NCBI GenBank assembly: GCA_947628735.1 | Contig: CANRAY010000001.1 | Coordinates: 10,391 to 74,390, forward strand | From: an uncultured Clostridia bacterium | GTDB lineage: Bacteria > Bacillota > Clostridia > TANB77 > CAG-508 | Direction of reading: 5' to 3' | Length of the DNA stretch: 64,000 bases | Part shown: one piece after another, positions 23,180 through 61,089 of the stretch | Position numbering within the stretch: the stretch's first letter is position 1 | Layout of the letters: the number at the start of each line of letters is the position of its first letter | Translations under genes and position numbers: made by a program | The notes under the pieces: model-generated | Told to the model about the DNA's origin: nothing | The model's database searches: none | The model's input: only the letters and a program-made list of their open reading frames with translations

Positions 23180-23188
23180 ATTTTTCCC

Positions 23189-38785: not shown

Positions 38786-38967
38786 AAGAATCACCCCTAA
38801 AAAATACTAAGCAGATTAAATATATATGATTTTATAAAAAAGTCCTTCTTATACATTATTTTGGTTTACCGAAATTTAGACTTCCTGCTCTTTAAAGCCT
38901 TATTTCCGTAGCCTTAATAATGCAAATTCCTCTTTTCTATAAATTTACATAACAAAAGTAAAAACAG

Positions 38968-39177: not shown

Positions 39178-42100
39178 CTATTTTGTATCATTTTCTTTTA
39201 TTTTTTTAACATAAAATATTACCTTTATTATAGCTATTATGATAGTTAATATATAAATAATACCGTATACATTAATTTCTTTACCTGTTTTTACACTGAC
39301 AATAACTTCTGCATTAGATTTATTGTCTTCTAAATTGTTATCTTCATAATTTGCTTCATTTTCAAATTCTTCAATTTCTGCTGTATTTTTCTCGTTACCG
39401 AAGTTCTCACTTCCTCTTTTCCAAACTAGAGTAATAGGAAATTCCTTTGTTTCTCCCACTTCTAGTTCAACTTCTCTTTTTAAATTTCCGTTTCCATCTT
39501 CTTTCCAATCTTTTGATGTTTTTTCAGTAGCAACAAAGTATTCTGGAAGTCTTTCTATTAAAGTAGCTTTACCAGCAATTTCTCCTGTATTACTTACTTT
39601 AATATTATATTGTATTTCTACTGTTGTATTTTCCATTTCTGAACCTACAATTTCAACTTTAATTAATTTTCCATCTAATACTTTCTGCTCTTCTCCATTA
39701 ATAATTGCTTTTGTAATGGTTTTCTCTACTGCGAAATTAAATATTTGTTTTCTATAATAATAAACAATTTCTTTATCTTCCTCTGTAAATTTTCCATCTT
39801 TATTACTTGGAATTAGCTCTTCCACTAAATTATAGAACGGAATATCTCTTGGCTCTGTTTCATAATCTTCTCCAACTTCACCAGTTTGTTCATCTCTATA
39901 AGGCTCATACTCATCTGTCTCTTCGTTTTTATGTAAAATTTCTTCATCTGTTTCAACATCTTTGTATTTTACAACAATCTTTCCTGAGACTTTCTCATAC
40001 CAGTAAATAACAATTTGTTCTTCTCTTAAAAATACACCTGTTTTATTTTCTGGTTCTGGATCTGCTGCTCGATATCCTGGTATACTTTTTCTTTCTGTAT
40101 CATATGGTGTTTTAACTTCTCCTTCTAAAACAACCTCTGTTTCTAGAACATTTTCTGTTTCTTTCTCTAAAAACTTAACAATAACTGTTCCTCTTCTTTT
40201 TTTATAATGATAAATAACATCTTTATGTTCATCTCCATATTCACCCTCTGGTTCTCCTTCTACCCAGTCTACTTCATAATCTTCAAATGGATCTCCTGTA
40301 CCAGGTTTTGTTTCATATGGTGTTCCTATTGGTTCCTCTGTATCTTTTGGTGGAATAATATCATTTCCATCTTCATCTACGTGCCTTTCTGTTAATGTTC
40401 CTTTTTGTTTTACATAATAGTATATTACCTCATCCACTCCATCTGGTAATACACCTGTTTCATTTCCTTTAACACTATCATATACATATCCAGGAATTTC
40501 TTTTTGATCTGTTGGTCCATAAGGATCTCCAGCATTTCCATTTATTTCATATTGATAAGTTTTCTCTACTCCATCTTCTTCGTAAGTAATTTCTTCACCT
40601 GTGTCTTTATCTACATAATGTACAACTACTTTTCCTGGAAGATCAAAAAATGTTTCAGCATCATCTTCTACTGTATTTTTTTCTTCTGTTTCATAGAACT
40701 CTATTGTTCCTGAAACATAATTTATCATTCTCTTATCATTAAAATTCAAATCTTTAAATACTACTGTTATATCTTTGCTAAATGATATTTCATGTTCTCC
40801 GTTTGGCTCTTTAGAAGTATCAATATCATTTAATTCTATCTCCCATGTAATAGATGGTTTTAGATCCTCATAAACTCCATCAAAAGTAGATTTACTTTCA
40901 TCTATATGATATGGCAAAATATCAGTTACAATTAACTTAGCATCTCCCTTATAGTCTTTTACTATAGCATGATATTCAATATGATAAGTTACTGGTTCAT
41001 CAGATTTTTTAACTACTGTTGGCCCTGTTTTTGTTATTTCTGCTTCTAAATCCCTATTCACAAGCCAATAATTATTAGTTATTTCAATAACATCATTTGC
41101 AAGTACGATACTAGGTGTCTCATAGGCATCTAGTTCACCATCTTGTGTAGGTTTTTCTTCTATACTATATATAATTTCTATTCCTTGTTGTGTATATTTT
41201 TGTAAATTTTCAAATGAAGCTCTCCAACTATTATCATCATTTAGAACTTTCTCTTGTCCAGTATGCATTCCATTAGAAAGTAGTTCTACAGTTACACTAT
41301 TAGGTCTTTTTCCTTTTTTATTTCCATTATCATTCCATTTTTTTATTACTTCTTTTGTTACAAGATAGTTTTGTTCTACCTCTTCTGTATCTGTATCTTC
41401 TTCTGTAATTCTTTCTCCTCCAGGATCATCTGGATAATTGCTTGGATAATATAATGTTACTGTAGCATCAACAATATTTATTAATGTTTCTGCTTTATTT
41501 TGTCCAACATATACAAATTCTATATCTTTTTCAATTGTTTCTGTATATGGTTTATTTGTTGCAAATGTATCAATATTTCTTTCTTCTTCCCAAGTAATTG
41601 TTCTAGTTATTTTATCATATTTTCCACCATTCAATTTTGTTTTCTCAGATTGAATATCTATATCAGCTGGTAAAATATCTTTAATTATAATTTTAGCTTT
41701 TCCTTTATATGAATCTATTTCAACAGTTTGTTTAATATGATATTTAACAACTCCATCTTCTTTAGTTAAAACTGCAACATTGTCTCTTACACTATCTGCT
41801 TCTGCAGTTTTCTCTACATTTGTTTTTACACTAACATCCTTTAATGTATAGTAGTAAATAACAACTTGCTCTTCCTCTGTATAAGTTCCACTTTGTGGAG
41901 TTGGGTTTTTACATTCATAATTTGGATCAACTTCACTTGATGGACTTGTATCAAAGTTTTCTCCTATAACACCTGTTTTTTCTGAATCTGGTGCTAGACT
42001 ATCTGTAGTAGCTCCAAGATCACCCTTTGATTCATCCCAGAAATAATGGTGAACAACCACCTTTCCTGGTAATTCTACTTTAACACTTGCATCATCTTTC

Positions 42101-45100
42101 TTTTCATCTCCAGGCACTGTAACTTCATATTCATCTGGATGTTCTGGATCTGTACTCTTTTGCAATAAATCAATTTTACCTGTTGCTGTATTATCTATTG
42201 TTGCATTTACAACATTTGATGGATAAATATATTTTAATGTAATATTTTTAGTAATTGTAATTACTTGTTCGTCATTATCCTCATTGTAAGTATTAACATC
42301 TACTAATGGAATATCCCAACTAATTGTATTAGTATCTGAATCAAAATGTCCTCCTTCATCTAGGTTTGAATTAGATACATCTATTGGATATGGTAATTTA
42401 TCAGTTAATGTAATTTTAGCCTTACCAACAAAATCTCTAACAGTAGCAGTATATGTTATTGTATAAGAAATTTTTGTTTCTTTGCTAGTAACTTTTTCTG
42501 TAGTTGTAGTTTTAGTAATAGTATCATCTATACTTATATCTGGTTTTTCATAAGGCGTATCTACTTCATTTGTTGATTCATCTGTAACTATTGCGACATT
42601 TTTTATAGTACCATTTTCAGGTTTATAATTAACTATAACTGTAAATTTTAATCTCACTTCTGAATTAGCTTTAATTTCTGAAACTAACCAATGAATAATT
42701 TTACCATCCGTAATTTTACCGTCATTTTCTATTGTTTTCTTTGATGTACCATCTGGTATAACATCTGTTACAGTAATATTATTAGCAGATATTTCACTTA
42801 AGTTTTTAATAACAATTGTATATTCAATTTCATCTCCTGCTGTAACTGCATCTTCACTAATATCTTCTGTTGTTTTCTTTATAAGTTTAGCTTCCTTATA
42901 AAATTTAATAATTGGTGTTTTTACTGGTCCTACAGGTATTTCTTCTTCTTCCTCTTCATCCTCTGTTGGTGGTACTTTGACCATACCTGTATTCGTAATA
43001 GTAACTTGTCCTTTTCCTTCTTGTACAGTATCTACTGTAACTTTAAATTCAACTGTAGATGTAGTTCCTTTTTTTACATGAACTGAAATTCCAGTTTGTA
43101 GATTTGTTTCATCATATGCTTGTGGTGATACTACTCCATCTATAGTTACTTTAATACTTCCTGGAACCAAAGTAGTTCCTTCTGGTACTGTATCAGATAC
43201 AGTTACATCACTATCGCTCATTCCAGTATTTGTAATATTAATCTTATAAGTAAGTTGCTCACCTTCAATTGCATAATTATGTCCATATTGTGTAGTTACA
43301 GTTTTATTAGCATTAATAATAGCATCTCCAGCAGCATTTTCTATTATAACATACACCTCTGGCATATTTTCAAAGTCATCTGCACCTTTTATACTAACTT
43401 TACTATTATCTAAGTTTTGAAGTTCACTTACTTCTAGGACTTTCGTATTAGCATTTCTATTAACTTTTAATTTATGTTCCTTTGTATTTAATTTATATAT
43501 GCTTTCTCCAACTCTATCTTGAACAATTTTCCATGTATCAGCATATAGTTCTTTCCAAGCTATCGATCCTTCTGGTGCATTTTTTTGATCACCATTTGTA
43601 TATTGATCAGAACCTGTTAAAGTAAAATCAGACCCTTTTATTAAAGTTTCTTCATCCTTTACTTTATTAATAACAGTAAGATTATATTTGTACAAATTTT
43701 GAATGTCCAAATAAACAATATTTGTATTTTCTCCATTTCTTACTGCTTTAACAAATCCATTTGCATTTCCACCTGGTTGATTATCATCATCTAATATTTG
43801 TAATTCATAAGTTCCATTATTATATACAACACGGAATTTAATTTCATTTGTATCTAAAATATAAGGACTACTAATATCTTTTTGATGAATAACATAAATT
43901 CCATCAACATATAAACCGCTATATTGTGCTATGGTGTTTCCTACTTTTTTAGCATCTCCATAAGTATCTCCATACTTTTCACCCTTAATTTCTATTGTTG
44001 CAGATGCATTTGTAATTTGTGGTGTTGCGTTTTTTATAGTAGATTGAGTGTTATATTTATAATCATTAATAATAAGATTATATTTTTTTCCTGAGCCTAT
44101 TTGAACACCTACTTTATCTGTTTCAGTTGAACGACCCGCAGCACCTACTGCATCAAAATATATAGCATGGGTTGCATACGTAATATCTCCATAATTTACA
44201 TTTGCAGGTAAATTAACATCATAATAAAGAACTTCTCTTGTTTTAGCCGCAATTTGGTTGCTTCCAAAATCAATCATATATGATTTTACACGAGACCAAT
44301 CTGGGTTTTGAATCCAAACACTATCACCTGAAGTACCTTTTGTATCATCTTTTGTTGCATTTTCATTATACGAATAATAAACTGTATATTTTCCATTTAT
44401 ATCATTATAATCTGTTTTAATTCCTGCAGCATCCATAGTTGTATCTATTTTTGAGCCTAATTCTCTATCTGAATTAATAACATTTTTATTACCTGTAAAT
44501 GGTATTCTTCCTACTATTTTTACATTACTAATAGCAGATTCATAACCATTTGAAACATTTATGTTAATTCTTACTTTTTTATTTGCTTCCTTAGCTACAC
44601 TTGCCACATTTGGTCCTTCTACAACTGTACCAAGATCATCAAAATTAGTAACTTGTGTTGATGTATATAATGTATTTGATGTTGCATAATAAATTTTTAA
44701 ACTTTCTGCTCTTGTTGTTTCTGTTTTATTGTTATCATTATCTATATCATATATATCTTCTGCATTATCAGATTCTCTATTGTAATATTTCCAAAGATTA
44801 CATGCCTCATTATAAGCAAATATTCTTACAGTGTCACTATCTTTTCTACTGCTATTATTAATTAAAGATTGAAATTTTAAATATCCAACTTCTAATTCTT
44901 TAGTAATAACACCTTCTAGTTCTAATGTTAATATATATTTATTACCTTTCTTTTCAACCTCATGCTTTTTTATTTCTATATCATTACCATTATTATAAAA
45001 AGTAAAACTATTATAAATAACCTCCGTAAAAGTTTCTGGAAACTCTACAATGATTTTTGGATTAACCCAATTAACATAATCTTTATCAAGATACTTTTCA

Positions 45101-47007
45101 GTTCCATACAAAAAGATTGATAAAGTATTTGTATTTAATTTTTGCTCACTAAACGTATAGTTAGGTGCATCAAACCTGGTATAATACATACTGCTTCCTT
45201 CTAGATATTCACCAGCTACCGCATCACCATTGATTTTTACCAATTCCTCTTGATTAGTTCTTTTAATTAAACCACTAAATGCAGAATTAACATGTGTAAA
45301 TGTATCAAATAAATTTACATCATACGTACTTTTTAATATTGAATTATCTATTCTCTTAAAATTTTCTATTCTAATAATACCAACATCTACTGGTTTACTT
45401 GTTTCAATACGAATATGCTTTATTGGTTTATCTGAATCATAAGTTACAATTTTATTTACATCTTCATAAGTAATTTGTTTTATTTTTTGACCCGTATCTT
45501 CATCATAAACATCTATATATCCACTTTCACCCAATACCAAAAATGCGGTACTATCAACACGTATTGCAGAATAGCTAAGAAATTGCTGCATATCATATAG
45601 ATTGTTATTAGAACCAGTAAAATGATCTGTATCTTTATTATATGCTCCTGATAAAATACCATCACTTTGAGAATATTTTTCAGAGAAAACAAATTTTTCA
45701 ATGCTCTCATCTATTAAATGATATCTTACTAACCAATCTACTTGATATCCTGCCTCTGCATTCTTTTCTTTTTCATAATAAATTCTACTATTTGCTTTTG
45801 CTAATCCATCTATATCTATATTGTACAATAAGATAGAGCCTTTAGGATTTTGTAATTTAAGCCAAAAAGTAGTCTCATCTTTAGTAGATTGAACATCTAC
45901 AATATTTCCAGACTCATCAGTTGAATATCCTTTTACATACGCTTCTGCCCTAAATTGAAAAACTTGTCCTGTAGCTCCTACTTGAGTAGCAGCACTTATT
46001 GGATATTCTATAATAATAGTAGGAGAATACTTATATGTATTAGTTATAACTTTTCCATTACCATCTGCATCAAGAGGATTTTCCATTGTAACTACTAATT
46101 TTCTAGTAGTTTTATTATAATCACATTTCATATGTTTTCTATATGCACTCATATCATTAACATATACATCTACTGGAGAACAATTACCCAACTGTGGTAT
46201 TGTAGCTTCAATTATTCCTTCTTTATCTGGTGCAAATATATATGATGAACCCGCCTTTTTTGTACTTAGAAAAGGATTAAAAATTATATAAACTTTGTTT
46301 TGTTTATGGTCTATAATATACAAGCTATCAGCTGAATATACTACAAATCCACTTATTTCGTTTTCAATTTCAATACTACCATACCAATCTATTCTAAACT
46401 GAATTTCTTTTCTAATGGTAGTTTCTGTTCCATTTGGATCTTCATATGTACCCGTAAATATTAATAAATTATCTTTACACGACAATTTATTTTTATTAAA
46501 ATCACTATCTTTTATAACTCCTTGTTCCATTGTTATATTAATTGTTTTTGTAGTACCATAATCTATAGTTGCAAATTCGATTTTATTTACAGCAACACTT
46601 TTTATATGTTGATCTTTTTCTATGTTATTTATCATCGTAAAGTTCTTAGATTGCAATTCAATTTTGGCATTTTTCAATTTACCTTGTGTTTGAACATTTA
46701 AATTAACTGTTAATTTAACATCTTCATTTAGTTCTTGCCTAAAACCTTTATATTTTTTATTTCCATCTAAAAAATACGCATCAAATGTAACATAGGGCGA
46801 TTCTGTTTTATTATCTTCTTGTTCTATTGGATCTAATCCCTTTGCCGTATTTGCAGCTTTGTAATTTTGATTACTTAATTTTATTTGCTGAACATCATTG
46901 CTAGTAAAATTATTTACTATACCAGTAATAATTAACATAACAGTTAAAATAAATATTACAGCCATCATGATTTTTATTTTTTTACGTTCTACCTTCTCTA
47001 AATACAT
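39178..47007 (-). CDS. Giant cell-wall-anchored surface protein paralog P2 (about 2609 aa)
   Basis: The order of parts is: N-terminal signal or anchor (IMMAVIFILTVMLIITGIV); a ~970-aa region shared only with P1 and P3; SpaA-like folds; two DUF11-type repeats (LTYKINITNTG..., IEYTIVIKNLS...); three isopeptide-D2-like modules; a Cna-B-type domain (KKWNDNGNKKGKRPNSVTVELLSNG, about 41150-41365); MucBP-like repeats (about 39745-40636, plus one further upstream); and a C-terminal SVKTG + TM + KKIK tail. I prefer the second ATG (47007), 7 nt after AGAGG. Confidence 0.9.
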   Translation of the reverse strand: MYLEKVERKKIKIMMAVIFILTVMLIITGIVNNFTSNDVQQIKLSNQNYKAANTAKGLDPIEQEDNKTESPYVTFDAYFLDGNKKYKGFRQELNEDVKLTVNLNVQTQGKLKNAKIELQSKNFTMINNIEKDQHIKSVAVNKIEFATIDYGTTKTINITMEQGVIKDSDFNKNKLSCKDNLLIFTGTYEDPNGTETTIRKEIQFRIDWYGSIEIENEISGFVVYSADSLYIIDHKQNKVYIIFNPFLSTKKAGSSYIFAPDKEGIIEATIPQLGNCSPVDVYVNDMSAYRKHMKCDYNKTTRKLVVTMENPLDADGNGKVITNTYKYSPTIIIEYPISAATQVGATGQVFQFRAEAYVKGYSTDESGNIVDVQSTKDETTFWLKLQNPKGSILLYNIDIDGLAKANSRIYYEKEKNAEAGYQVDWLVRYHLIDESIEKFVFSEKYSQSDGILSGAYNKDTDHFTGSNNNLYDMQQFLSYSAIRVDSTAFLVLGESGYIDVYDEDTGQKIKQITYEDVNKIVTYDSDKPIKHIRIETSKPVDVGIIRIENFKRIDNSILKSTYDVNLFDTFTHVNSAFSGLIKRTNQEELVKINGDAVAGEYLEGSSMYYTRFDAPNYTFSEQKLNTNTLSIFLYGTEKYLDKDYVNWVNPKIIVEFPETFTEVIYNSFTFYNNGNDIEIKKHEVEKKGNKYILTLELEGVITKELEVGYLKFQSLINNSSRKDSDTVRIFAYNEACNLWKYYNRESDNAEDIYDIDNDNNKTETTRAESLKIYYATSNTLYTSTQVTNFDDLGTVVEGPNVASVAKEANKKVRININVSNGYESAISNVKIVGRIPFTGNKNVINSDRELGSKIDTTMDAAGIKTDYNDINGKYTVYYSYNENATKDDTKGTSGDSVWIQNPDWSRVKSYMIDFGSNQIAAKTREVLYYDVNLPANVNYGDITYATHAIYFDAVGAAGRSTETDKVGVQIGSGKKYNLIINDYKYNTQSTIKNATPQITNASATIEIKGEKYGDTYGDAKKVGNTIAQYSGLYVDGIYVIHQKDISSPYILDTNEIKFRVVYNNGTYELQILDDDNQPGGNANGFVKAVRNGENTNIVYLDIQNLYKYNLTVINKVKDEETLIKGSDFTLTGSDQYTNGDQKNAPEGSIAWKELYADTWKIVQDRVGESIYKLNTKEHKLKVNRNANTKVLEVSELQNLDNSKVSIKGADDFENMPEVYVIIENAAGDAIINANKTVTTQYGHNYAIEGEQLTYKINITNTGMSDSDVTVSDTVPEGTTLVPGSIKVTIDGVVSPQAYDETNLQTGISVHVKKGTTSTVEFKVTVDTVQEGKGQVTITNTGMVKVPPTEDEEEEEEIPVGPVKTPIIKFYKEAKLIKKTTEDISEDAVTAGDEIEYTIVIKNLSEISANNITVTDVIPDGTSKKTIENDGKITDGKIIHWLVSEIKANSEVRLKFTVIVNYKPENGTIKNVAIVTDESTNEVDTPYEKPDISIDDTITKTTTTEKVTSKETKISYTITYTATVRDFVGKAKITLTDKLPYPIDVSNSNLDEGGHFDSDTNTISWDIPLVDVNTYNEDNDEQVITITKNITLKYIYPSNVVNATIDNTATGKIDLLQKSTDPEHPDEYEVTVPGDEKKDDASVKVELPGKVVVHHYFWDESKGDLGATTDSLAPDSEKTGVIGENFDTSPSSEVDPNYECKNPTPQSGTYTEEEQVVIYYYTLKDVSVKTNVEKTAEADSVRDNVAVLTKEDGVVKYHIKQTVEIDSYKGKAKIIIKDILPADIDIQSEKTKLNGGKYDKITRTITWEEERNIDTFATNKPYTETIEKDIEFVYVGQNKAETLINIVDATVTLYYPSNYPDDPGGERITEEDTDTEEVEQNYLVTKEVIKKWNDNGNKKGKRPNSVTVELLSNGMHTGQEKVLNDDNSWRASFENLQKYTQQGIEIIYSIEEKPTQDGELDAYETPSIVLANDVIEITNNYWLVNRDLEAEITKTGPTVVKKSDEPVTYHIEYHAIVKDYKGDAKLIVTDILPYHIDESKSTFDGVYEDLKPSITWEIELNDIDTSKEPNGEHEISFSKDITVVFKDLNFNDKRMINYVSGTIEFYETEEKNTVEDDAETFFDLPGKVVVHYVDKDTGEEITYEEDGVEKTYQYEINGNAGDPYGPTDQKEIPGYVYDSVKGNETGVLPDGVDEVIYYYVKQKGTLTERHVDEDGNDIIPPKDTEEPIGTPYETKPGTGDPFEDYEVDWVEGEPEGEYGDEHKDVIYHYKKRRGTVIVKFLEKETENVLETEVVLEGEVKTPYDTERKSIPGYRAADPEPENKTGVFLREEQIVIYWYEKVSGKIVVKYKDVETDEEILHKNEETDEYEPYRDEQTGEVGEDYETEPRDIPFYNLVEELIPSNKDGKFTEEDKEIVYYYRKQIFNFAVEKTITKAIINGEEQKVLDGKLIKVEIVGSEMENTTVEIQYNIKVSNTGEIAGKATLIERLPEYFVATEKTSKDWKEDGNGNLKREVELEVGETKEFPITLVWKRGSENFGNEKNTAEIEEFENEANYEDNNLEDNKSNAEVIVSVKTGKEINVYGIIYILTIIIAIIKVIFYVKKIKENDTK
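39283..39297 (-). other. Putative non-canonical sortase recognition motif SVKTG of P2
   Basis: AGTGTAAAAACAGGT encodes SVKTG. It is followed by a hydrophobic helix (VYGIIYILTIIIAIIKVIFYV) and a basic tail (KKIKENDTK), which is the tripartite cell-wall sorting signal architecture. Confidence 0.55.
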
Positions 47008-47170
47008 ATGCATACCTCTTTGTTTAAAATTTATATTTAATATTTTATATTTATTTATATATATAATTATTAAATATTCAAGATAGCTATATACACTATT
47101 TTTACAGTATTATTACGGTTTTTCAGCTTACACTAATTATTAAGTTTTTTTTACATTTTTGTCATAGTTT
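47008..47170 (-). promoter_or_regulatory. 5' region of P2, with a weaker copy of the conserved paralog upstream module
   Basis: It shares TTACGG ... ATTATTAAG ... ACATTTTTGT.AT with the P1 and P3 modules. A possible promoter is TTGAAT (47081-47076)-N17-ATAAAT (47058-47053), but AT-richness makes this weak. Confidence 0.3.
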
Positions 47171-47306
47171 TTTCAATTATTTACCAAATTTCGCCACATT
47201 TAATGATTCCCTAGTAAATTCTATATTACTGTAAACTTATTAGTTGCATTTATAAATAAATTATAGTAGAATAAAAACGTTATTGAAATGAAAGGATTTA
47301 AAACAT

Positions 47307-47798
47307 ATGCCAGTTATTTTAAAATATTTAATTACATTTGGAATCTCTATGGTACCTATTATTGAACTAAGAGGAGCTATCCCTGTTGGCGTTGGAATGG
47401 GATTATCTTATTTTGAATCATTTATTTGTAGTTTTATTGGAAATATCATTCCAATTTATTTTATTGTAAAATTCATTAGACCACTTTTTGATTTTTTTGG
47501 AAGATGGAAAATCTTTAAAAAAATTATTGATTTCGCCACAGAAAAAGCAACTAGAAACATTGAAAACAACCCACGTTTACAAAACTTTACTGCATTAGGT
47601 TTATTTTTATTTGTTGCTATTCCTTTACCTGGCACAGGTGCATGGGTTGGATCACTAATTGCTAATTTTCTAAATTTACCACCTAAAAAAGCTATTCCAC
47701 CAATTGTAGCCGGTGTATTTACTGCAGGAGTTATTGTTTTATCAATTACTGCAGTTGCTGCTGGTGGTATTCAAGCTATTTTTACACATACAATGTAA
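47307..47798 (+). CDS. Small polytopic membrane protein of the COG2426 / small multidrug export-like family
   Basis: 163 aa with about 4 TM segments. MVPIIELRGAIPVG and LPGTGAWVGSLIA are characteristic of that family as I recall it. It is the only plus-strand gene between P2 and P3. Confidence 0.6.
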   Translation: MPVILKYLITFGISMVPIIELRGAIPVGVGMGLSYFESFICSFIGNIIPIYFIVKFIRPLFDFFGRWKIFKKIIDFATEKATRNIENNPRLQNFTALGLFLFVAIPLPGTGAWVGSLIANFLNLPPKKAIPPIVAGVFTAGVIVLSITAVAAGGIQAIFTHTM

Positions 47799-47808
47799 TT
47801 TAAAAAAT

Positions 47809-47856
47809 AAAGAACTAAGAATCTAGCCATATTTATGAGCTAGATTTTTAGTTCTT
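47809..47856. terminator. Bidirectional terminator shared by the small membrane protein gene and P3
   Basis: AAAGAACTAAGAATCTAGC-loop-GCTAGATTTTTAGTTCTT, between convergent stop codons. Confidence 0.65.
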
Positions 47857-47884
47857 ATGGTAAATATTTACTTATATTTCAATA

Positions 47885-50800: not shown

Positions 50801-53800
50801 CTCTGTTGTTTCTGTTTTAACAATAACATCTTCCTCATTTTCTTCCTGTATTAAATCAACAGTTACTTGAACTTTATTATTAATACTTCCTGTTAGTTCT
50901 CCTCCATCCGGATAAATATATTTTAACTCCAAATTTTTTATACGATTAATAATATTATTTTGTCCTTCAAATGAATCAACTGTTAATATTTCTTCCCATG
51001 TAATTGTATAGGTTCCATCAATTGCTTGATAATGACCTCCATTTAATTGTGAATTTGCATCATCAATTGGGAAAGGTAATGTATCTACCATTGTTATTTT
51101 TGCTTTTCCTTTGAAGTCTTTAATTTCAGCATTATATTCAATTGAATATCTTACTTTTGCATTTACATCAGCTACTGTAACATCTCCTGATTTATCAACA
51201 CTATGATCTACTATTGGTTCAGGTTTTTTATATGGTGTATCTATTTCATTTGTTTCTTTGCCATCTACCACTGCAACGTTTTTAATAATAGCATCTTTAT
51301 TTTGATAATTTACAGTAACTTCGAAGCTTACAGTTGTCTTCATTCCAGCTTTTAGCTCAGAAATTTTCCATGTTATTTCACCTTGACCATTATAAACTCC
51401 ATCATTATCAATATGTTTTAAAACTGTTCCTTCTGGAATTTTATCTTTTACTACAATTTTAGATACATCAACTTCACTAATATTTTCTACAGTAATGATA
51501 TATTTAATAACATCTCCCACTGTTACTGAATTTTCTGGAAGTTGTTCTTTTTCTTTATTTGAAATTTCCACTGTTTTGTAATATTTCATTACAGGAGTTT
51601 TGGTTTCATTCGTTTCTATTTCTTTTGGATCAGGTTCTTCTGGATCTTGATTTGTTTTACTTTCTTGATATGTAGCTTTATTACGTATTGTTACCTGAGG
51701 TTGATTTTCTATATTTAATACTCTTACTTCAAAAATTACCTTAGATGTTGAATTTGCTTCAACCTTTACATCAATACCATCCCTTAAATTATCTTCTGTA
51801 TAAGTACCTTCTACTCTCATGTCATTTGAATCTAGTACTTCAATACTATCTGAAACAAACTCTGTATTATCTGGTGCAGTATCTTTTACTTTTACTGTTG
51901 TTGCTAAATCTCCTTTGTTTGTTAAAGTAATTGTATACTTGATTTTTTCACCTTCAATTACATATTCTCTACCATATTCAGATGTAGCCACTTTTTCAGC
52001 AACTATATCTGTTTCAACATATGGATTTTCAACAATATTTGTTTTTCTTCCTTCTGGCTCTTTTGTTGCATCATCAATAACAGTTGCAACATTTTTAATT
52101 GTCGCACCTTTCTCCAAATCTTTTACTTTTACTTTAAATTCTACTTTTTTCTTTGCCCCTGCATCAATAGTTACTGAAATACCACTCTCTAACTGTGTAT
52201 CATCAATACCTTGATTTTCTGACTCCCAAGTATCCTCATCATTTTTGTATTTCATAACTTTAATACTATTGGCTACTAAATCAGTTCCTGTTGGAACATT
52301 ATCTTTTACTTTAACAGTTGCTGGAGCTTTTCCTGTACTATTATCTAATAAAATAGTATAAGTAATAACTTGACCTGCAGTTACTGCTTCTTTAGGATCA
52401 TTCATTTTGCTTACTTTTAGATCTGATTTATCTACTACTGTTTCTACTTTTGGAGTTTCCTTTCCATCTACAGTAGCTATATTCTCAATCTTTCCAACTT
52501 TAGCATCACCCTCTAAATCATTTACAGTAACTTTAAAGCTTACAACAACACTTGAATTTTCCTTAACATCTACATCTATACCAGATTCTAAATCTGCTTC
52601 TTTAACAGTAGTTCTTTCTTCCTCACCTACTTTTACACTTCCTTCTACAAAAGTAGTTCCATCAGGTGCAGAATCTATTACCTTTACTTTTTTTGCTAAG
52701 TTACCACTATTAGTAATAGTAATATAATAAGTAAGTGTATCATTTGGAACCGCATATGGTTGTTCTGAACTAATTTCTACTGTTTTCTTCATTGAAATAT
52801 CAGATCTCTTATATGGATCTTCTACTTCATTTGTTTCATGCTCATCTTTTGGATCTGGATCTGGTTTTGGATCATCTGGATTATAATTTGGCCCTACTAC
52901 TGTATAAGTTCCTTTATTTACAATTTTTTCTACTCCTGCTAATTCTTTTACTGTTACTTGGAACTCTAACGTTTTTTCTTCACCTGGAGCTACCTTTACA
53001 GTAATTCCACTTTTCAAATCTTCTGCCGTATAATCTCCTTCAGATTTTGGTTCTTCTTCTCCTGAGCTTTTCTTTACTTTAATGCTCTTTTCTACCAATT
53101 CTACTTGTTCTTCTAAAATAGGATCTTTAATTGTAACAGTTCCTTCTGCTTTTCCACTATTTGTAATAGTTAAAGTATATGTTATAACATCTCCTGTTGT
53201 AACATATTCATTTTCTATTTCTGATGATTTTGTAATATTTATTTCTGGTCTTGCATAATCAGTTTCTGTTTCATTAGTAGGATGTTCTCCTACCGTTGCT
53301 ACATTTTTTATCTTATGTCCTTCTGGAATTTCTACTACAGTTACTTCAAAACTTACTGTTTTAGTTTCTCCCTTTTCTCCATCATGTCCTCCTGCTAATG
53401 AGTCTATTGTCCATGTTATTTCGTTAGTTTCTTCACTATAATTTTCTTGATTATCTGATGATTTATATTTTGTTCCATTAGGTATTTTATCTTTAATAAT
53501 GATATCACTTGCATTTTCTTCACTTATATTGCTTACTTCTATTGTATATTTTATTGTATCTCCCATAGTAGCACAATTATCTTTTACCTGTCCCTCTACT
53601 TTTCTTGTTATTTCCACAGTTTTTTTAGTAACAATAACTGGTGTTTTAGTTTCTACTGTTTTATCTTCTGGTTTTGGTTCCGGATGATCAGGTTGAGTAA
53701 TAGTAGCAATATTCGTAATTGTTTCTTTAGTTTCATCTGTTATTTTATTTACTTTTACTCTAAATTCAAGTACTGCTTTTCCTTTTGCTGGAACACTAAT

Positions 53801-56800
53801 ATCAATACCATCCTTTAACTCTTGTTCAGTATATACAGATCTAAGTGAAGCATCATTTATTTTGATAATAATACTATCATCAACAAATGTTGTTCCTTCT
53901 GGAGCAGAATCTTTTACATTTGCTGTTCCATCTAAATCTCCACTATTTGTTAATGTAATTGTATATGTAATTTCTTCTCCTTCCATTGCATATTTTCTAG
54001 TTGTTCCATCTACTAATTTTACAAATGCATCTTTTTCTCCTGTAATAACTGCTTCTTTATATGTATTTACAACTTGTACTGTGTGAGTTTCTGGTTGCTC
54101 TTGATTTGGTATATCTTCTGTAACAGTTGCAACATTTTTAATTTCAGCACCATTTGTTAAATCTTTTTCTATTTGTGATACTTTTACCGAAAATTCTACT
54201 GTTGCTATTGTATGTGCTGGAATTTCTATAGATATTCCATTTTTCAAATTATCTTCACTATATGAATTTCCTTCTGATGGATTTTGTTTTTCTTCACCTA
54301 TTTTTACAATAATACTATTTTCAACAAATGTTGTACCCTCTGGAGCCGTATCTTTTACAGTTGTTTTTGCAGGAGCAGTTCCATTTGTATTATCTAATTT
54401 GATTGTATATGTAATTGTATCATTTACTTTTACTGCTGTTTCAGAATCTGGATTATTTATTTTACTTACTTTTAAATCTGAAGCATATTCTTTTATTGGC
54501 TCACTAGTTGGATTATCCTTTGGATCATCAGTTGGATCTTCTCCTGGTTCTTCATCATTATCTTCTATATGAGCTGTATTAATAATTTCTCTTTCTGTTT
54601 CTTCTTCATTTAAAGGTAAAACTTTTACTCTAAATGTTAATGTTTTTGATTTTCCTGCTTCTAAAGTTACATCAATTCCATTTATTAAATCTTGTTGCGT
54701 ATAATCAGTACCATCAAGTTTTACTTGTACTTGATTATCACTATCTTCAATTTTAATACTTTTATCAACAAATTCTGTACCTGCTGGAATCTCATCTTTA
54801 ATTTTAGCTGTTCCTTCTTTGTTTCCGTTATTAGTTACAGTAATAGTATATTCTATAAAATCTCCTGCTACTGCATATGTTCTTTCTTCCTCATCTTCAG
54901 CTAATATTAATTTAGCTGTTTTTGTAGCAATAATATCTGCCGCTTCATAAGTATTTTCAATAATAACATAAACAGTTGGTTGATGTTCATAATCATTATT
55001 TTCTATTCTTATTGTAGTATCATCCAACTCAGAAAGATTTTCTAATTTTATTTTTCCATCTTCATCTCTTGAAACAGTAAATTTATGTTCTTTGTCATCT
55101 TTTACATATTTATTATTTCCTACTTCTTCTTGAGTAACAGTCCATGTATCTTCTAATTCATTTTCCCATGTTGCTTTTCCATCTTCTGCTACTTTGATAT
55201 TATCTTCTTTTTCCTGTTTCTCACCTTCTACTTTGATTTTTGAACCTGTAATATAATCTTCAGAACCTTTTACCTTATTCTCTACAACAATATTATATTT
55301 GTATTTATTTTGAACATCTAATCTAACAGTTGGAACATCAGATTCTGGATCTTCAATTTCTGTTGCTTTTATAAATTCTTTTGTTTTTTCTTCCTCATCT
55401 AAAATTTCAAATACAAGATCTCCATTAAGGTCTGTTGTTAAACGGAACTTAATTTCATTTTCATCTCTAATATATGGATCACTGATTTTACTTTGATGAA
55501 CTGTATACACTGCTCCTACATATAAATCATCATAAACTGCAGGATTATTTCCTGTAACTTTATCATTATTCCAATCTTCTCCAAGATTTTCACCTTTTAT
55601 TTGGAAAGTAGCTTCAGCATTTGTTACAGTTTCTGTTGCATTTGGAATTAATGACTCTGTTTTAAATTTATAATCGCTAATTTTTAATTTATATTTTTGT
55701 CCACCTATTTGTAGTCCAACTTTATCTGGTTCAGTTGAAGTTTCACTAGACGTACCCTTAGAATGGAAATAAATAGCATGATCTGCATAAGTCTTTTGTC
55801 CATAAGATAATTTTTCTGGTAAATCAATCCAGTAATAGAAACTAAAATTAGACTTTGCTGGAACTTCTGAACTTATTTCTATTTTATATGATTTAATATT
55901 TTCCCAATCAGTTGGATGTTCTTCCCATTCCGAACCATCTTTTGTTGCATTTTCATCTGTTGAATAATATACTTTATAACTTAAATTTTGTTTATAATTC
56001 TCGTCTATTTTAATTCCTGTTTCTTCCATTGTTGTTGAGAATTCTGATCCAAGCTCTATACTGCTATTTATTACATGATCATTTCCTACAAATGGAATTC
56101 TTCCTACAATAACTGTACCTGTAATCGGATTAGAATATCCATTTGAAACTAATATATTTACTCTTGCTTTATTACCTGATGCACTTGGTATAATTGAAGC
56201 TATATTTGGTCCTTCTACAATAGAACCTAATTCATCAAAATCTGTAATTTGTGTTTTGGTTACTAAATTATCTGTTTGTGCATAATATATTACTGGTTTT
56301 TCAATTCTGGTCTTCTCATTCTTATTACTGTCACCATCAATATCATAAATATCATCAACATATTCTGATGATCCTAGATATGCAACATCATAATATTCAC
56401 AAATACTGTTATATCCAAATACTCTAATTCTATCAGCTGATTCTAGTGTAGGATTTTCAACTAATGATTGAAATTTTAAAAGTGAGTCTGAGTTTGATGT
56501 AATAATTCCTTCTGTTTCTATTTTCATCACAATATGATTTTCTATTTTTTCTATTTTTACTTTTTTAACTTTTACATTCACTCTACTAGTCGAAAAACTA
56601 CTATATGAAACTTTTGTAAAATTATCTGGAAACTCTATATATAACGTTGGATTTACCCATGCTGTAAATTGTCTATCAATATCACTATCTCCTGCAAAAA
56701 AATGAATTATCATAGTATTTTTATTCAATTTTTGTGGGTCAAATGTATAATTTTCTTTATCAAACTCTGGATAATATGATGTACTACCTTCTCTATAATC

Positions 56801-58570
56801 TACATTTTTTACATCACCATTAATTGAAGTTAGTTTTGCTTCATCACTATATTTAACAAGTCCATGTAATGTAGAATATAATTTTACAAATTTCTCAAAT
56901 TCATCTTTATCATGTTCTGTTTTTAATATTTGATTATCAATATTTTTTATATGTTCTATCTTAATATTACCTGTTGATACTGGTTTACTTGTTTCTATTC
57001 TAATATGCTCAATAGGAGTATCATATTTTATTAATTCATTTGCATCAGTATATCTAATTTCCTTAACAACTTTATCAGAATCTGCATCATAAACATAAAC
57101 AATTCCATTTTCACCCAAAACATCAAATGTTGTCTCAGAAACACGAATACCTTCATAATGAATAAATGGATCCATGTCGTAAAAATTACCATCTGAATCT
57201 GCAAAATGATCTGTATCTTCTTCATAAGCTTCATCTAAAACATTTTTTGCATTTGAATAATCTTCTGCAAAAACGAATTTCTCTATTTTTTCATCATACA
57301 AATAGAAATCTAGGTTCCAGTCAACCTTATAGTTAACTTTCATGTCAACATTTTTATCATAGATTAATCTACTATTTGTTTTAGATAATAATGATTCATC
57401 AATATCAATATTATATAAAAGCACAGAACCTTTAGGATTTTTTACATCAACTGACATTGTTACACTTTTTTCTTTAGACTGCACTTTTTCTCTTTCACCA
57501 TTTATGTTAGTTGACCATCCCTCTAGATATGCACTTGCTGTAAAGTCAATATTATTAGTTGTGGCTTCTATTTCATCATATACTTCAATTGGATATTCCA
57601 TAACAATATTAGTAAAATACCATTGTTCCCCATAAATAACATAACCTTTTCCCGCATCTGACAATGGATTTTCTATACTAATTTTTAATTCACCTGTTGA
57701 CTTATCATATGATTGCTCTTTAATGTTTTTTTTGTAAGTACTCATATCATTAACATGAATTGCTGTAGGATACTGTCCTCCTATACTTGGGGCTGTTCCA
57801 CTAATAACAAGTCCAGCATCTGGTGCCATTACAGTATCAGTATCTCCAGTTTTTGTAAATGCCCATGGATTATAAACAAGATATACCTTTTCTTCTTTTT
57901 CATCTACAATAAATAAATTATCTTCAGCATAACACCAAAAACCATACTCATATTCATAATCAATACTTCCATACCAATCAATTCTAAATTCAATTTCCTT
58001 TTTAATTTTTTGAGTCTGACCACTTTTATCTATATAATTACCACTAAAGGTTAACTTATTTGTTCTAGAAAGAAGATTAACATTAAATGTATCCATAAAA
58101 GTATCAAAAACTTTTTGTTCAAAAGTAAGGTCAATTGGTTTTGTAGTACCGTTATTTATTGTATTGAAATAAATTGAATTACCACTTACACTTCTAATTT
58201 GGTCATCTGTAGAAATATTTTTTATCATTGAAAAATTGCCATTTGATTCCCAAGATATTTGTGCATTCTGTAACTGTCCTTCTGTTTGGACTGTTAATGT
58301 AGTTTTCAATACAACTTGTTCATTTAGCTCTTGCCTAATACCCCTATATTTTTTTCCATCTGTTGATTCGAAATATGCATCAAACTTTACAAATTCAGAA
58401 CCTGTATCTGATGAATTTTCTGGTAATTGTTCAAAGTTTTCAAAAGATTCTGTGTTTTTAACTGCTTTTACTTCGACATTTGAAAAACTACCCAATATTG
58501 CTGTCATAATACAAATAATTGCAATAATTAAAAACAAAAACTTTAATTTAACCGATACCTTTTTCTCCAT
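47885..58570 (-). CDS. Giant cell-wall-anchored surface protein paralog P3 (3561 aa)
   Basis: It starts with a signal peptide (FLFLIIAIICIMTAILGSFSNVEVKA) and a ~950-aa N-terminal region homologous to P1 and P2 (FRIDWYGSIDYEYE, NPKGSVLLYNIDIDE, IEHIRIETSKPV, IVEGPNIASI, VGRIPFVGN, YADHAIYF). SpaA-like folds and nine DUF11-type repeats follow. Then come isopeptide-D2-like modules, a Cna-B-type domain (about 49870-50090) and four tandem MucBP-like repeats (about 48450-49350). It ends in SVKTG + TM + KRK. Confidence 0.92.
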   Translation of the reverse strand: MEKKVSVKLKFLFLIIAIICIMTAILGSFSNVEVKAVKNTESFENFEQLPENSSDTGSEFVKFDAYFESTDGKKYRGIRQELNEQVVLKTTLTVQTEGQLQNAQISWESNGNFSMIKNISTDDQIRSVSGNSIYFNTINNGTTKPIDLTFEQKVFDTFMDTFNVNLLSRTNKLTFSGNYIDKSGQTQKIKKEIEFRIDWYGSIDYEYEYGFWCYAEDNLFIVDEKEEKVYLVYNPWAFTKTGDTDTVMAPDAGLVISGTAPSIGGQYPTAIHVNDMSTYKKNIKEQSYDKSTGELKISIENPLSDAGKGYVIYGEQWYFTNIVMEYPIEVYDEIEATTNNIDFTASAYLEGWSTNINGEREKVQSKEKSVTMSVDVKNPKGSVLLYNIDIDESLLSKTNSRLIYDKNVDMKVNYKVDWNLDFYLYDEKIEKFVFAEDYSNAKNVLDEAYEEDTDHFADSDGNFYDMDPFIHYEGIRVSETTFDVLGENGIVYVYDADSDKVVKEIRYTDANELIKYDTPIEHIRIETSKPVSTGNIKIEHIKNIDNQILKTEHDKDEFEKFVKLYSTLHGLVKYSDEAKLTSINGDVKNVDYREGSTSYYPEFDKENYTFDPQKLNKNTMIIHFFAGDSDIDRQFTAWVNPTLYIEFPDNFTKVSYSSFSTSRVNVKVKKVKIEKIENHIVMKIETEGIITSNSDSLLKFQSLVENPTLESADRIRVFGYNSICEYYDVAYLGSSEYVDDIYDIDGDSNKNEKTRIEKPVIYYAQTDNLVTKTQITDFDELGSIVEGPNIASIIPSASGNKARVNILVSNGYSNPITGTVIVGRIPFVGNDHVINSSIELGSEFSTTMEETGIKIDENYKQNLSYKVYYSTDENATKDGSEWEEHPTDWENIKSYKIEISSEVPAKSNFSFYYWIDLPEKLSYGQKTYADHAIYFHSKGTSSETSTEPDKVGLQIGGQKYKLKISDYKFKTESLIPNATETVTNAEATFQIKGENLGEDWNNDKVTGNNPAVYDDLYVGAVYTVHQSKISDPYIRDENEIKFRLTTDLNGDLVFEILDEEEKTKEFIKATEIEDPESDVPTVRLDVQNKYKYNIVVENKVKGSEDYITGSKIKVEGEKQEKEDNIKVAEDGKATWENELEDTWTVTQEEVGNNKYVKDDKEHKFTVSRDEDGKIKLENLSELDDTTIRIENNDYEHQPTVYVIIENTYEAADIIATKTAKLILAEDEEERTYAVAGDFIEYTITVTNNGNKEGTAKIKDEIPAGTEFVDKSIKIEDSDNQVQVKLDGTDYTQQDLINGIDVTLEAGKSKTLTFRVKVLPLNEEETEREIINTAHIEDNDEEPGEDPTDDPKDNPTSEPIKEYASDLKVSKINNPDSETAVKVNDTITYTIKLDNTNGTAPAKTTVKDTAPEGTTFVENSIIVKIGEEKQNPSEGNSYSEDNLKNGISIEIPAHTIATVEFSVKVSQIEKDLTNGAEIKNVATVTEDIPNQEQPETHTVQVVNTYKEAVITGEKDAFVKLVDGTTRKYAMEGEEITYTITLTNSGDLDGTANVKDSAPEGTTFVDDSIIIKINDASLRSVYTEQELKDGIDISVPAKGKAVLEFRVKVNKITDETKETITNIATITQPDHPEPKPEDKTVETKTPVIVTKKTVEITRKVEGQVKDNCATMGDTIKYTIEVSNISEENASDIIIKDKIPNGTKYKSSDNQENYSEETNEITWTIDSLAGGHDGEKGETKTVSFEVTVVEIPEGHKIKNVATVGEHPTNETETDYARPEINITKSSEIENEYVTTGDVITYTLTITNSGKAEGTVTIKDPILEEQVELVEKSIKVKKSSGEEEPKSEGDYTAEDLKSGITVKVAPGEEKTLEFQVTVKELAGVEKIVNKGTYTVVGPNYNPDDPKPDPDPKDEHETNEVEDPYKRSDISMKKTVEISSEQPYAVPNDTLTYYITITNSGNLAKKVKVIDSAPDGTTFVEGSVKVGEEERTTVKEADLESGIDVDVKENSSVVVSFKVTVNDLEGDAKVGKIENIATVDGKETPKVETVVDKSDLKVSKMNDPKEAVTAGQVITYTILLDNSTGKAPATVKVKDNVPTGTDLVANSIKVMKYKNDEDTWESENQGIDDTQLESGISVTIDAGAKKKVEFKVKVKDLEKGATIKNVATVIDDATKEPEGRKTNIVENPYVETDIVAEKVATSEYGREYVIEGEKIKYTITLTNKGDLATTVKVKDTAPDNTEFVSDSIEVLDSNDMRVEGTYTEDNLRDGIDVKVEANSTSKVIFEVRVLNIENQPQVTIRNKATYQESKTNQDPEEPDPKEIETNETKTPVMKYYKTVEISNKEKEQLPENSVTVGDVIKYIITVENISEVDVSKIVVKDKIPEGTVLKHIDNDGVYNGQGEITWKISELKAGMKTTVSFEVTVNYQNKDAIIKNVAVVDGKETNEIDTPYKKPEPIVDHSVDKSGDVTVADVNAKVRYSIEYNAEIKDFKGKAKITMVDTLPFPIDDANSQLNGGHYQAIDGTYTITWEEILTVDSFEGQNNIINRIKNLELKYIYPDGGELTGSINNKVQVTVDLIQEENEEDVIVKTETTEDNHSANLEIQGDVIVHHYIYDEDKGGRTTDKLVEDRQLAPGLVGETYTTSPLTGEELDPNYECINPEPESDNHTGIREKETKHANYYYKLKDPTIENSVDKTAEIKVLTQENGVVKYNITQKVKVDTYKGKVTIALKDILPAAINKGASKLDGGTYHPESRTITWTIEKNIDTFTDGIYEETISKNIEIVYEDQNVLLPLENKVNAKVILYNPENYTPAPNEKRKVDEKEDKETVEQKYIVNQAVQKVWEDGDDHNGKRPSSIIVELIADGVRTDKRAVLNAGNNWTTTFENLDKYSALGNKIVYSVEEIEANPEDLLFYEAPTLSGENPIIITNRYRTIAENIDAVINKDGPEKITSFREGVNYTINYQATLTDYRGDAKLKIIDYLPYHIDAESSVLSDGTYTGVYDENTNTITWEISMNNINTDENGNYSIQFKTNIVLVFNDIDSSINSLSNKVDAILDLYANNSSNVVTDIETTPVDIRGKLIVHYKDKKTGEELTHEVDGVQQEYKYEEEGRVGDTYTARKEIIPGYVFDSVKGNEFGVYEDGTIEVTFYYVNEETPGIDVRWVDEDGNDLATPERIPGEGQPGKIGDPYHTEPKDFDDYELDYVEGETDGTLTEEGGEVVYHYKKKVGTVIVQYLEKDTEEELLPEKVEKYPIGEEYTTERENIPNYRRADPEPDNKNGIVTKEDTYVKYYYERIPGGKVVTKHVDVDTGEEILYPDEDTGEYETYREEQTGDVGDPYTTDPLDIPYYDLVEELLPTNQDGFFGEEDKEVIYFYRKQTFNFKVDKVITKAVINGEEQKVLDGKLIKVEIVGSEMEDTDVEITYKIRVTNTGEIAGTTTVLEKLPKHFTIGKEVYDEWTENKNGNLEAEVSLEPGETKEFTIKLTWKRGSANFGREINTAEIKDFDNDAHYDDNNEKDNTSEAEVVMSVKTGAPGYTFFIVYIIAIVVSITEVIIFYKRKTEAKL
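47987..48001 (-). other. Putative non-canonical sortase recognition motif SVKTG of P3
   Basis: AGTGTTAAAACAGGT encodes SVKTG. It is followed by APGYTFFIVYIIAIVVSITEVIIFY and KRKTEAKL. Confidence 0.55.
51306..54878 (-). repeat. Array of nine diverged DUF11-type (conserved repeat domain) modules within P3
   Basis: The recurring pattern is GD.I.YTIT..N.G...... V.D..P.GT.FV..SI.V ... L..GI.V.V......V.F.V.V, about every 85-130 aa. I counted nine copies by eye in the translation. Confidence 0.75.
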
Positions 58571-58750
58571 AATCTTACCTCTTCTTGTTAATTAATATAA
58601 TAAATATTATTATATATATATTAATTAGCTTTTAGAAAACCGTCAATTACTTGTATACGTGTATTTTGGCCCATTTTTCTTTCCAATTTACGGAAAATAA
58701 TCGTTTCTACATTATTAAGAATTATTGACATTTTTGTTATATTTTAGACA
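58571..58750 (-). promoter_or_regulatory. Conserved 5' regulatory module of P3, including a SigA-type promoter (-35 TTGACG at 58641-58646, -10 TAATAT at 58618-58623)
   Basis: It has the same TTGACG-N17-TAATAT, RBS and upstream blocks as 1483-1660. It contains TACGGAAA at 58689-58696, and an inverted copy lies just upstream at 58781-58788. Confidence 0.55.
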
Positions 58751-61063: not shown

Positions 61064-61089
61064 TTCCTTCTCCTTTTAAATAGTTATTT

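Follow-up and report, generated by a model that had tools for sequence, protein, structure and literature searches.

Three giant surface-protein genes among the core genes of an uncultured Clostridia bacterium are probably old, stably maintained paralogs

Giant genes for secreted proteins, alike in architecture and wedged between housekeeping genes, raise the question of whether they form a repertoire that is still being reshuffled or a set of old copies that has been kept. Such genes occur in a 64,000-nucleotide (nt) stretch of the genome of an uncultured Clostridia bacterium (assembly GCA_947628735.1, contig CANRAY010000001.1), the whole of which is referred to here as the window. Three of its genes, P1 (1..1482), P2 (39178..47013) and P3 (47885..58570), all on the minus strand, encode giant surface proteins, and the initial annotation regarded them as a recombining, diversifying adhesin repertoire. 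Considering their divergence, their genomic setting in related organisms and their domain content, we think it likely that P1, P2 and P3 are instead ancient, stably maintained paralogs within a family of giant Gram-positive fibrillar surface proteins, probably adhesins.

P2 and P3 are intact open reading frames (ORFs) of 2611 and 3561 amino acids (aa), P2 being situated directly upstream of rpoB, while P1, whose ATG is at 1482, is cut off by the left edge of the window, leaving visible its N-terminal 494 aa, namely a signal peptide and the first half of the head. Together they take up (7836+10686+1482)/64000 = 31% of the window, in agreement with the nearly one-third first estimated. Paralogy of the three is borne out, with 59% aa identity between P1 and P3 over 492 aa, 44% between P1 and P2 (E=8e-122) and, for P2 and P3, 40% in the N-terminal and 46% in the C-terminal high-scoring segment pair (HSP; E=0); the N-terminal similarity noticed initially therefore persists under alignment. 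When P2 and P3 are compared in windows of 60 residues, each is 35-77% identical, except the signal-peptide window at 28%. Other elements of the initial description were confirmed or qualified. The repeat content does differ sharply, with DUF11 repeats in 10 stretches of P3 vs 3 of P2, and the P3 stalk exceeds that of P2 by ~950 residues. The notion of shared, conserved ends stands insofar as P2 and P3 have a C-terminal anchor module in common, but these ends are 40-60% identical, about like the rest of the protein. All three genes do lie on the same strand, but this is uninformative since nearly all genes of the window are on it (27 of the 32 ORFs with 150 aa or more) and the GC skew is negative throughout, at a GC content of ~28%; of the five ORFs on the plus strand, two overlap with P3 and are probably not genuine. 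Likewise, P2 and P3 are neighbours on the minus strand, but a plus-strand gene (47307..47798) encoding a small membrane protein of the Sm_multidrug_ex family (PF06695, E=3.9e-39) intervenes, divergent from P2, and thus they form no simple tandem pair or operon.

An actively recombining adhesin repertoire, in which conserved ends serve as substrates and the middles are shuffled by gene conversion or unequal crossing-over, would account for same-strand paralogs with a common architecture and different DUF11 counts, and distant members of the family are usually found in tandem pairs or triples. It is also compatible with a related protein of 3307 aa, P0016, which is 63% identical to P3 over stalk and tail (BLAST HSP) and has ~two fewer DUF11 units, while its head is ~47% identical to that of P3 and no closer than the P2 head; this step from ~47% to ~64% at the head/stalk boundary would fit a past exchange of modules. 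The copies themselves, however, are only 64-66% (P2/P3), 73% (P1/P3) and 65% (P1/P2) identical at the nt level, and their longest exact shared runs, of 36, 38 and 13 nt, respectively, are located in the most conserved peptide motifs. Where a residue is conserved, the fraction of identical codons is 0.67 for P2/P3, 0.72 for P1/P3 and 0.64 for P1/P2, vs 0.62 expected from codon usage at full synonymous saturation. Codon-aligned sliding windows across the copies gave a flat profile, with no low-divergence tract and no mosaic, and the protein and DNA alignments, in which breakpoints had been anticipated, revealed none, the longest identical run being 38 nt. The internal repeats have diverged as well: the DUF11 units within P3 share at most 76% nt identity, Tandem Repeats Finder detected no relevant tandem DNA repeats in the giants, and homopolymers of at least 9 nt and simple repeats are absent, the one exception being an (AT)6 tract within the leader of P1. 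A search for invertible-promoter repeats yielded weak AT-rich inverted repeats around the promoters, none of them convincing. Given that the copies have diverged to near synonymous saturation without low-divergence tracts, P1, P2 and P3 are, judged on their sequences, old duplicates and not substrates for homologous exchange today.

Variation across strains was examined in a sister species as a proxy. A metagenome scan yielded 17 loci, 15 of them from one human-gut sister species or close species group with a GC content of 26.5% and an RpoB whose N-terminal part is ~76% identical to that of the window. In this species the order is xth, a ytvI-like gene, a gene for a helix-turn-helix protein, Sm_multidrug_ex, giant gene, a gene for a BspA-type leucine-rich repeat (LRR) protein and rpoB; it was seen in full or in part across 15 assemblies and is invariant in them, pointing to stability and not to the variation between strains proposed at first. 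The sister-species giant has 2248 aa (2240-2270 aa in the nine assemblies with a complete ORF) and consists of a head, four SpaA and two MucBP domains and an NPHTG anchor followed by a transmembrane segment and RRK. In the reference assembly, L084, the Sm_multidrug_ex gene (PF06695, 9023-9532, E=1.5e-41) lies immediately upstream of the giant gene. Relative to L084, nt identity in the 12 closest sister-species assemblies was 99.1-99.9% in the first half of the giant's head, 99.0-99.7% in the second half (97.0% in L097), 97.2-100% in the stalk, 97.7-99.5% in the LRR gene and 98.1-100% in the flanks (xth, ytvI-like, rpoB). Two other assemblies, L095 and L098, are more diverged along the whole locus (95-99% to L084). 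The head is thus no more variable than the flanks, and the stalk slightly more so. Considering this invariant order together with the saturated synonymous sites, the flat identity profile, the short exact runs and the plus-strand gene between P2 and P3, we regard a recombining repertoire as very unlikely. In large surface proteins there is one strain-specific difference: upstream of xth, where unrelated genes lie in the other assemblies, L085 encodes a distinct large BspA-LRR/CUB protein of at least 2018 aa (3-6056).

The same synteny bears on how the giants came to their present location. Had they arrived as a horizontally acquired island that landed by chance beside rpoB and smc, a patchy occurrence would be understandable, and one relative, L003 (RpoB 80% identical), indeed lacks a giant gene in the 10 kb preceding rpoB, while another, L005, carries a PD-(D/E)XK transposase-family gene beside rpoB in a rearranged gene order. 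Against an island, the GC content of the giants (0.28-0.31) and their skew match those of the flanks, searches around the giant locus revealed neither an integrase nor a tRNA nor flanking repeats, and the slot between the ytvI-like gene and rpoB holds a family member and a PF06695 gene in a lineage of ~76% RpoB N-terminal identity. In the window, this slot is bounded by rpoB (35042..38794, minus strand) downstream, with rpoC at 31162-34734 beyond it, and upstream by the ytvI-like gene (61920-63062, minus strand) and xth (63076-63837, minus strand), whose products are 59% and 75% identical to their sister-species counterparts; P1, in turn, adjoins smc (1730-5281). Since the slot and even the small membrane-protein gene are conserved while the head has drifted to ~25% identity between the sister-species giant and the window proteins, the giant locus is, as far as sequence comparison allows this to be judged, an ancient resident of the slot and not an island. 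The island hypothesis, which we hold to be extremely unlikely, was accordingly rejected on composition and conserved synteny, and the initial view that the giants are embedded among core genes (smc, rpoBC), without forming an island, stands, the rpoB-side slot being conserved in the sister lineage. Because P2 adjoins both rpoB and the Sm_multidrug_ex gene, it is P2 that occupies the slot of the sister-species giant; identity to that giant favours neither P2 nor P3, and orthology of P2 is unsupported. P3 and a VanSR-like two-component system are extra in the window lineage relative to the sister species.

More distant members of the family, of 1660-1700 aa and ~24% identity, are usually arranged in tandem, two or three together, after minC in an mreBCD-PBP-minC cluster (PBP, penicillin-binding protein). 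Given that these members show both features, tandem paralogs and a core-gene setting are traits of the family. In four such loci (L099, L100, L104 and L105), the giant gene follows mreB-mreC-mreD-PBP-minC and two or three small opposite-strand ORFs, the proteins have anchors of the SLNTG or GLVTG type, and a second giant gene is usually directly next to the first.

Public sequences closer to the window are scarce. The sole near-identical one is a 6.6-kb ENA contig (L001), 100% identical to the window over 6355 nt; its last ~220 nt (6356-6576) diverge from the window at 54422, inside the DUF11 array of P3, and its called protein ends at 1398 aa. Such a divergence is most likely a short-read assembly break at the repeats (coverage 2.5x). 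The nearest GTDB representatives are metagenome-assembled genomes of uncultured Clostridia with RpoB 80-82% identical. In L003, the downstream order rpoB-rpoC-gdpP-rplI-dnaB-tilS-ftsH is kept and a LysM-GH25 gene lies in the region upstream of rpoB; in L005, the closest GTDB relative (RpoB 82%), the rpoBC/dnaB/ftsH block is rearranged and bears family members at both ends, the transposase-family gene being at 5681-6706. A pattern scan of GTDB representatives with the N-terminal alignment identified no relatives, and protein searches by word index yielded little: started from the P3 head, from the P1 fragment and from the P0016 head, they gave one identical fragment, ~14 matches at 23-28% identity, one at 34% and otherwise nothing. 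Exact-sequence look-ups of P2 and Smc gave no match, and for this reason full-length P1 was not recovered. One family member (~31-34% identical), in L082, is split at 4600-4720 into two ORFs of 1463 aa and at least 2376 aa that overlap by 47 nt, which could reflect a frameshift, a pseudogene or an assembly error.

What these paralogs are is indicated by their architecture, the parts of which, like the genes, are encoded on the minus strand. The N-termini of P1, P2 and P3 consist of a basic n-region followed by a hydrophobic stretch of ~18-20 residues, judged by inspection to be a secretion signal. The head follows, at 44134..46905 in P2 (about aa 37-960) and 55691..58462 in P3 (aa 37-960); that of P2 is homologous to the modelled P3 head and matches no Pfam or NCBIfam family, and the first ~1200 residues have no match among PDB sequences or in Pfam and NCBIfam. 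With a profile built from residues 1-496, an exhaustive hidden Markov model search of 1.84 billion representatives detected 281 representative clusters at E<=1e-3, 10 of them at E<=1e-30. The best 150 of these matches lie at or near the N-terminus of proteins that range from short fragments up to 3307 aa, and the homology of the head reaches about residue 950-1150. AlphaFold2 predicted residues 37-960 of P3 as an all-beta chain of immunoglobulin (Ig)-like sandwich domains (mean confidence score, pLDDT, 86.4), and the N-terminal 344 aa alone (37-380) also as all-beta (pLDDT 90.4). Using Foldseek, the P3 head models were matched to integrin alpha legs, complement MG domains, the AgI/II C-terminus, Bap (BSP domain) and SdrG/SdrE/Bbp/Als3, and the whole 924-aa head to generic multi-Ig chains only. 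In the predicted structure, therefore, the head is adhesin-like in build, and a ligand cannot be inferred from it.

Behind the head, Pfam detected (above its cut-offs) DUF11, one Cna_B domain each in P2 and P3, and MucBP (96-102 bits) in four stretches of P3 and five of P2; NCBIfam adds solely the DUF11-type repeat TIGR01451. The DUF11 family (PF01345) has been renamed CLIPPER, a CnaA-like domain, often with an isopeptide bond, that forms stalks in fibrillar adhesins (PMC12617251). In P2 the CLIPPER stalk spans approximately 42544..43341 with 3 repeats (PF01345 in 3 stretches, TIGR01451 in 2), and in P3 approximately 51251..54928 with 10 mutually diverged repeats (<=76% nt identity). Two SpaA-like prealbumin domains and three repeat units of ~250 aa, without a Pfam match, are also part of the stalk.

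Both complete copies end in what resembles a cell-wall sorting signal: SVKTG, ~22 hydrophobic residues predicted as a helix, and a K/R-rich tail, which is KKIKENDTK in P2 (39181..39297) and KRKTEAKL in P3 (47888..48001). Complete family members mostly end likewise, in x-[ILV]-x-T-G, ~22 hydrophobic residues and a K/R tail. In Clostridioides difficile, signals of the same layout carry PPKTG or SPKTG, which SrtB cleaves at the T-G bond (PMC4591827). Given that SVKTG is one residue from the cleaved SPKTG and that the layout is shared, attachment of P2 and P3 to the wall by a sortase is likely.

The three genes also share an upstream module. A 31-nt box, TATNACAAAAATGTNAANAANNNTTAATAAT, has exactly three copies in the window, with 0 expected by chance, and these are found upstream of P1, P2 and P3, 123-172 nt from the start codons. 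All on the minus strand, the P1 5' region (1483..1660) contains the box at 1621-1651 (TATTAC-N5-TGTAAA...TTAATAAT), TTTCCGTAA at 1598-1606 and, more proximally, a promoter-like site TTGACG-N17-TAATAT at 1528-1556 and the (AT)6 tract at 1514-1525; the P3 5' region (58571..58745) contains the box at 58711-58741 (TATAAC-N5-TGTCAA...TTAATAAT), TTTCCGTAA at 58688-58696 and the same TTGACG-N17-TAATAT site at 58618-58646; and the P2 box (47136..47166) reads TATGAC-N5-TGTAAA...TTAATAAT, with CCGTAA next, at -105. The TTTCCGTAA motif occurs four times in the window vs 0.24 expected. Over their whole ~175-nt length, the P1 and P3 5' regions are ~79% identical, with a local-alignment z-score of 33 vs shuffles, a statistic adopted in place of global upstream alignment because shuffled AT-rich sequence also gives ~70% identity; such similarity is notable given that synonymous sites are nearly saturated. 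An inverton at the P3 promoter, with TTACGGAAA and TTTCCGTAA as an inverted pair flanking the box, was considered and rejected, as its arms measure just 9 nt and P1 lacks the left one.

This module extends well beyond the window. Defined as the WalR-like box, TTAATAA and CTTCCGTAA, it spans 1598-1651, 47113-47166 and 58688-58741 in the window, and elsewhere it was located at L099 9814-9880, L100 9707-9761, L101 659-712, L104 2632-2700, L106 2479-2542 and L084 9704-9774. In the first five of these loci, the box is followed 20-35 nt further on by CTTCCGTAA, upstream of family genes. In the sister species, TATTAC-N5-TGTTAA and the 12-mer TCCGTAAGAAAG, identical to that of P1, are present in 15 of 15 loci. 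Another 12-mer, ACAAAAATGTAA, was found in only 5 of the 106 fetched loci, all five with family members. The module is thus kept before proteins that are just ~24% identical.

In the box, two hexamers are repeated directly at an 11-nt period and overlap the -35 position, an arrangement reminiscent of the Bacillus subtilis WalR consensus, TGTWAH-N5-TGTWAH (PMC9210968). Exact matches to this consensus lie upstream of the giants in L005, L099, L100, L101 and L106, and 13 other exact matches occur across the 106 loci. Rfam detected no riboswitch or other family in the whole window or in the P1 and P3 leaders. An RNA-structure reading of these leaders was dropped (RNAalifold gave only -5.7 kcal/mol), and since the predicted structure is weak we adopted that of a DNA operator/promoter. 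Considering that the promoter module is private to the three paralogs, P1, P2 and P3 are probably co-regulated by an OmpR-family response regulator. Two candidates are encoded in the window. One belongs to a WalK/WalR-like two-component system (21755..23938, minus strand; histidine kinase 21755-23179, response regulator 23189-23938); the regulator scores 337.1 bits vs the YycF cut-off of 340, and the kinase has WalK as its best match. The other belongs to the VanS/VanR-like system assigned by NCBIfam (59027..61791, minus strand; histidine kinase 59027-61063, response regulator 61090-61791), immediately upstream of P3. The two regulators are 42% identical, and their genes have 75% of nt in common over a stretch of 123 nt (23574-23696 vs 61451-61573), as a paralogous OmpR-family pair. 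The VanS-like kinase has a ~380-aa N-terminal region without a Pfam match, only HisKA and HATPase_c being recognized, from residue 458.

Whether the giants attach the cell to a host or to mucus is a separate matter, as they could be surface structures of another kind, that is, aggregation or biofilm-matrix fibres resembling Bap or SasG, or envelope spacers. The Foldseek matches to the Bap BSP domain and the AgI/II C-terminus would suit such a role, and so would the lack of a recognized specific ligand-binding fold in the head. Moreover, WalR-type boxes precede family genes, and in other lineages the members lie within mreBCD-PBP-minC cell-shape and division clusters; if the WalR-like system controls the giants, their role could concern cell-wall homeostasis and not attachment. 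Nevertheless, MucBP is classed as an adhesive domain, a head displayed on a stalk fits fibrillar adhesins, and the relatives come from the gut, a habitat in which the role is usually attachment. We therefore judge non-adhesive fibres to be unlikely, and we infer adhesion.

In the explanation that we prefer, that of old, stably maintained paralogs of a fibrillar surface-protein family, each protein would be exported via its N-terminal signal sequence and would display a ~950-aa Ig-like head on a long stalk made up of two SpaA-like domains, 3 or 10 DUF11/CLIPPER repeats, three ~250-aa units, one Cna_B domain and 4-5 MucBP repeats, and the sorting signal (SVKTG, hydrophobic stretch, basic residues) would keep it at the cell surface. 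Old duplication, gain or loss of stalk domains and fast divergence of the head would explain the differences among the copies. The promoter module, composed of two direct half-sites 11 nt apart (WalR/OmpR-type), TTAATAAT and the CCGTAA leader motif, may drive their expression. Going further, one could suppose that the head is an undescribed adhesion module (281 clusters), held in fixed core slots (rpoB, minC) across genera of uncultured low-GC gut Clostridia and driven by a family-specific promoter module that has outlasted divergence to ~24%; this wider proposal is tentative, and we would not expect it to hold in full.

Several points weigh against the preferred explanation. Stability in the window species would be an extrapolation from the sister species, and the identity step in P0016 hints at an ancient exchange of modules between head and stalk. 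Adhesion is proposed from domain content, and the structural matches of the head are generic Ig chains with template-modelling (TM) scores of 0.15-0.45, from which no ligand can be named. SVKTG is not LPXTG and no NCBIfam sorting-signal model was matched, and a plain C-terminal membrane anchor is thus possible; in addition, no sortase gene was found, either in the 64 kb of the window or in those related loci that we inspected. Regarding regulation, the exact sequence TGTWAH-N5-TGTWAH has 0 occurrences in the window, the boxes of P1, P2 and P3 departing from it by 1, 2 and 2 mismatches, respectively.

If the preferred explanation is right, the giants, which account for almost a third of the window in what is a small, low-GC genome of a gut Clostridia member, are likely to be the main contact of the cell with its host or neighbours. 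Old, stable copies would be better read as distinct tools, possibly differing in ligand or reach, than as a means of immune evasion. Should the regulatory proposal hold, the largest surface proteins of the cell would be under direct control of the essential two-component system of the cell wall or of a dedicated paralog, for instance the VanRS-like pair. The unannotated head and the promoter module offer concrete starting points for curating the domain, for binding assays and for testing regulators on DNA. More generally, for genome scans, the locus illustrates that a similar architecture on the same strand is, by itself, no sign of ongoing recombination.

Other housekeeping genes of the window are dus, an FtsW/RodA/SpoVE-family gene, minD/minE, the genes for the CCA-adding enzyme and signal peptidase and holB, as well as pyruvate:ferredoxin oxidoreductase genes, the WalRK-like pair, ftsH, tilS, dnaB and a gdpP-like gene. 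The ORF containing the MinE domain (11125-11820, minus strand) encodes 231 aa, and the MinE match is confined to residues 20-91. Near it, two minus-strand ORFs, 8229-8963 (244 aa) and 12816-13421 (201 aa), have no Pfam match, the latter at the position expected for minC. Genes rplJ and rplL usually precede rpoB. In the window they do not, and rpoB is preceded instead by a 383-nt spacer (38795-39177) after P2, in which there is a sequence resembling a strong promoter (TTGACA-18-TATACT, 39177-39148), together with two imperfect hairpins, at 39095-39122 and 38943-39047. In the relatives examined, the slot upstream of rpoB also holds genes for cell-wall or surface proteins, namely LysM-GH25 in L003 and the giant with the BspA-type LRR protein in the sister species.

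Comparison with known systems sets the giants apart from those that generate surface variation. Unlike pilE/pilS, tprK, vlp and inverton systems, they show no long high-identity tracts, donor cassettes, invertible promoter or slippage repeats between copies. Their promoters resemble those of the WalR (YycF) regulon (PMC9210968) in having two direct hexamers with an 11-nt period over the -35 position, exact in five related loci, although the boxes of the window contain 1-2 mismatches and the known WalR regulon comprises mainly wall hydrolases and not giant adhesins. The two N-terminal domains of P3 are modelled as tandem Ig-like sandwiches as in the MSCRAMMs SdrG, SdrE and Bbp and in Candida Als3 (Foldseek E 4e-7 to 2e-4, and about 1e-6 for the three MSCRAMMs), but TM-scores are about 0.2 and there is no sequence similarity, the likeness being one of predicted fold only. 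With the mucus-binding proteins of lactobacilli (PF06458) they share 4-5 MucBP repeats near the C-terminus and an apparently gut-dwelling organism; unlike in those proteins, MucBP is a minor part, and head and CLIPPER stalk are the bulk.

The substrates of C. difficile SrtB, CD2831 and CD3246 (PMC4591827), are clostridial putative adhesins with a CnaB-type domain and x-x-K-T-G followed by a hydrophobic stretch and a basic tail, and their SPKTG differs from the SVKTG of P2 and P3 by one residue. The giants depart from them in a motif without proline, in the lack of a visible sortase gene in the window or related loci, in being 5-10 times larger, and in having no c-di-GMP riboswitch upstream (Rfam negative). 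The giants also resemble the fibrillar adhesins with DUF11/CLIPPER stalks (PF01345; PMC12617251, PMC9210967), with which they share a signal peptide, a head, a CLIPPER/CnaB-type stalk, an anchor and a huge size, whereas their ~950-aa head is outside the described adhesive families and their stalk mixes CLIPPER, SpaA-like, Cna_B and MucBP domains. The giants would thus belong to an already known kind, that of giant Gram-positive fibrillar adhesins with CLIPPER stalks and an SPKTG-like signal, to which they add a new head family and a new promoter module.

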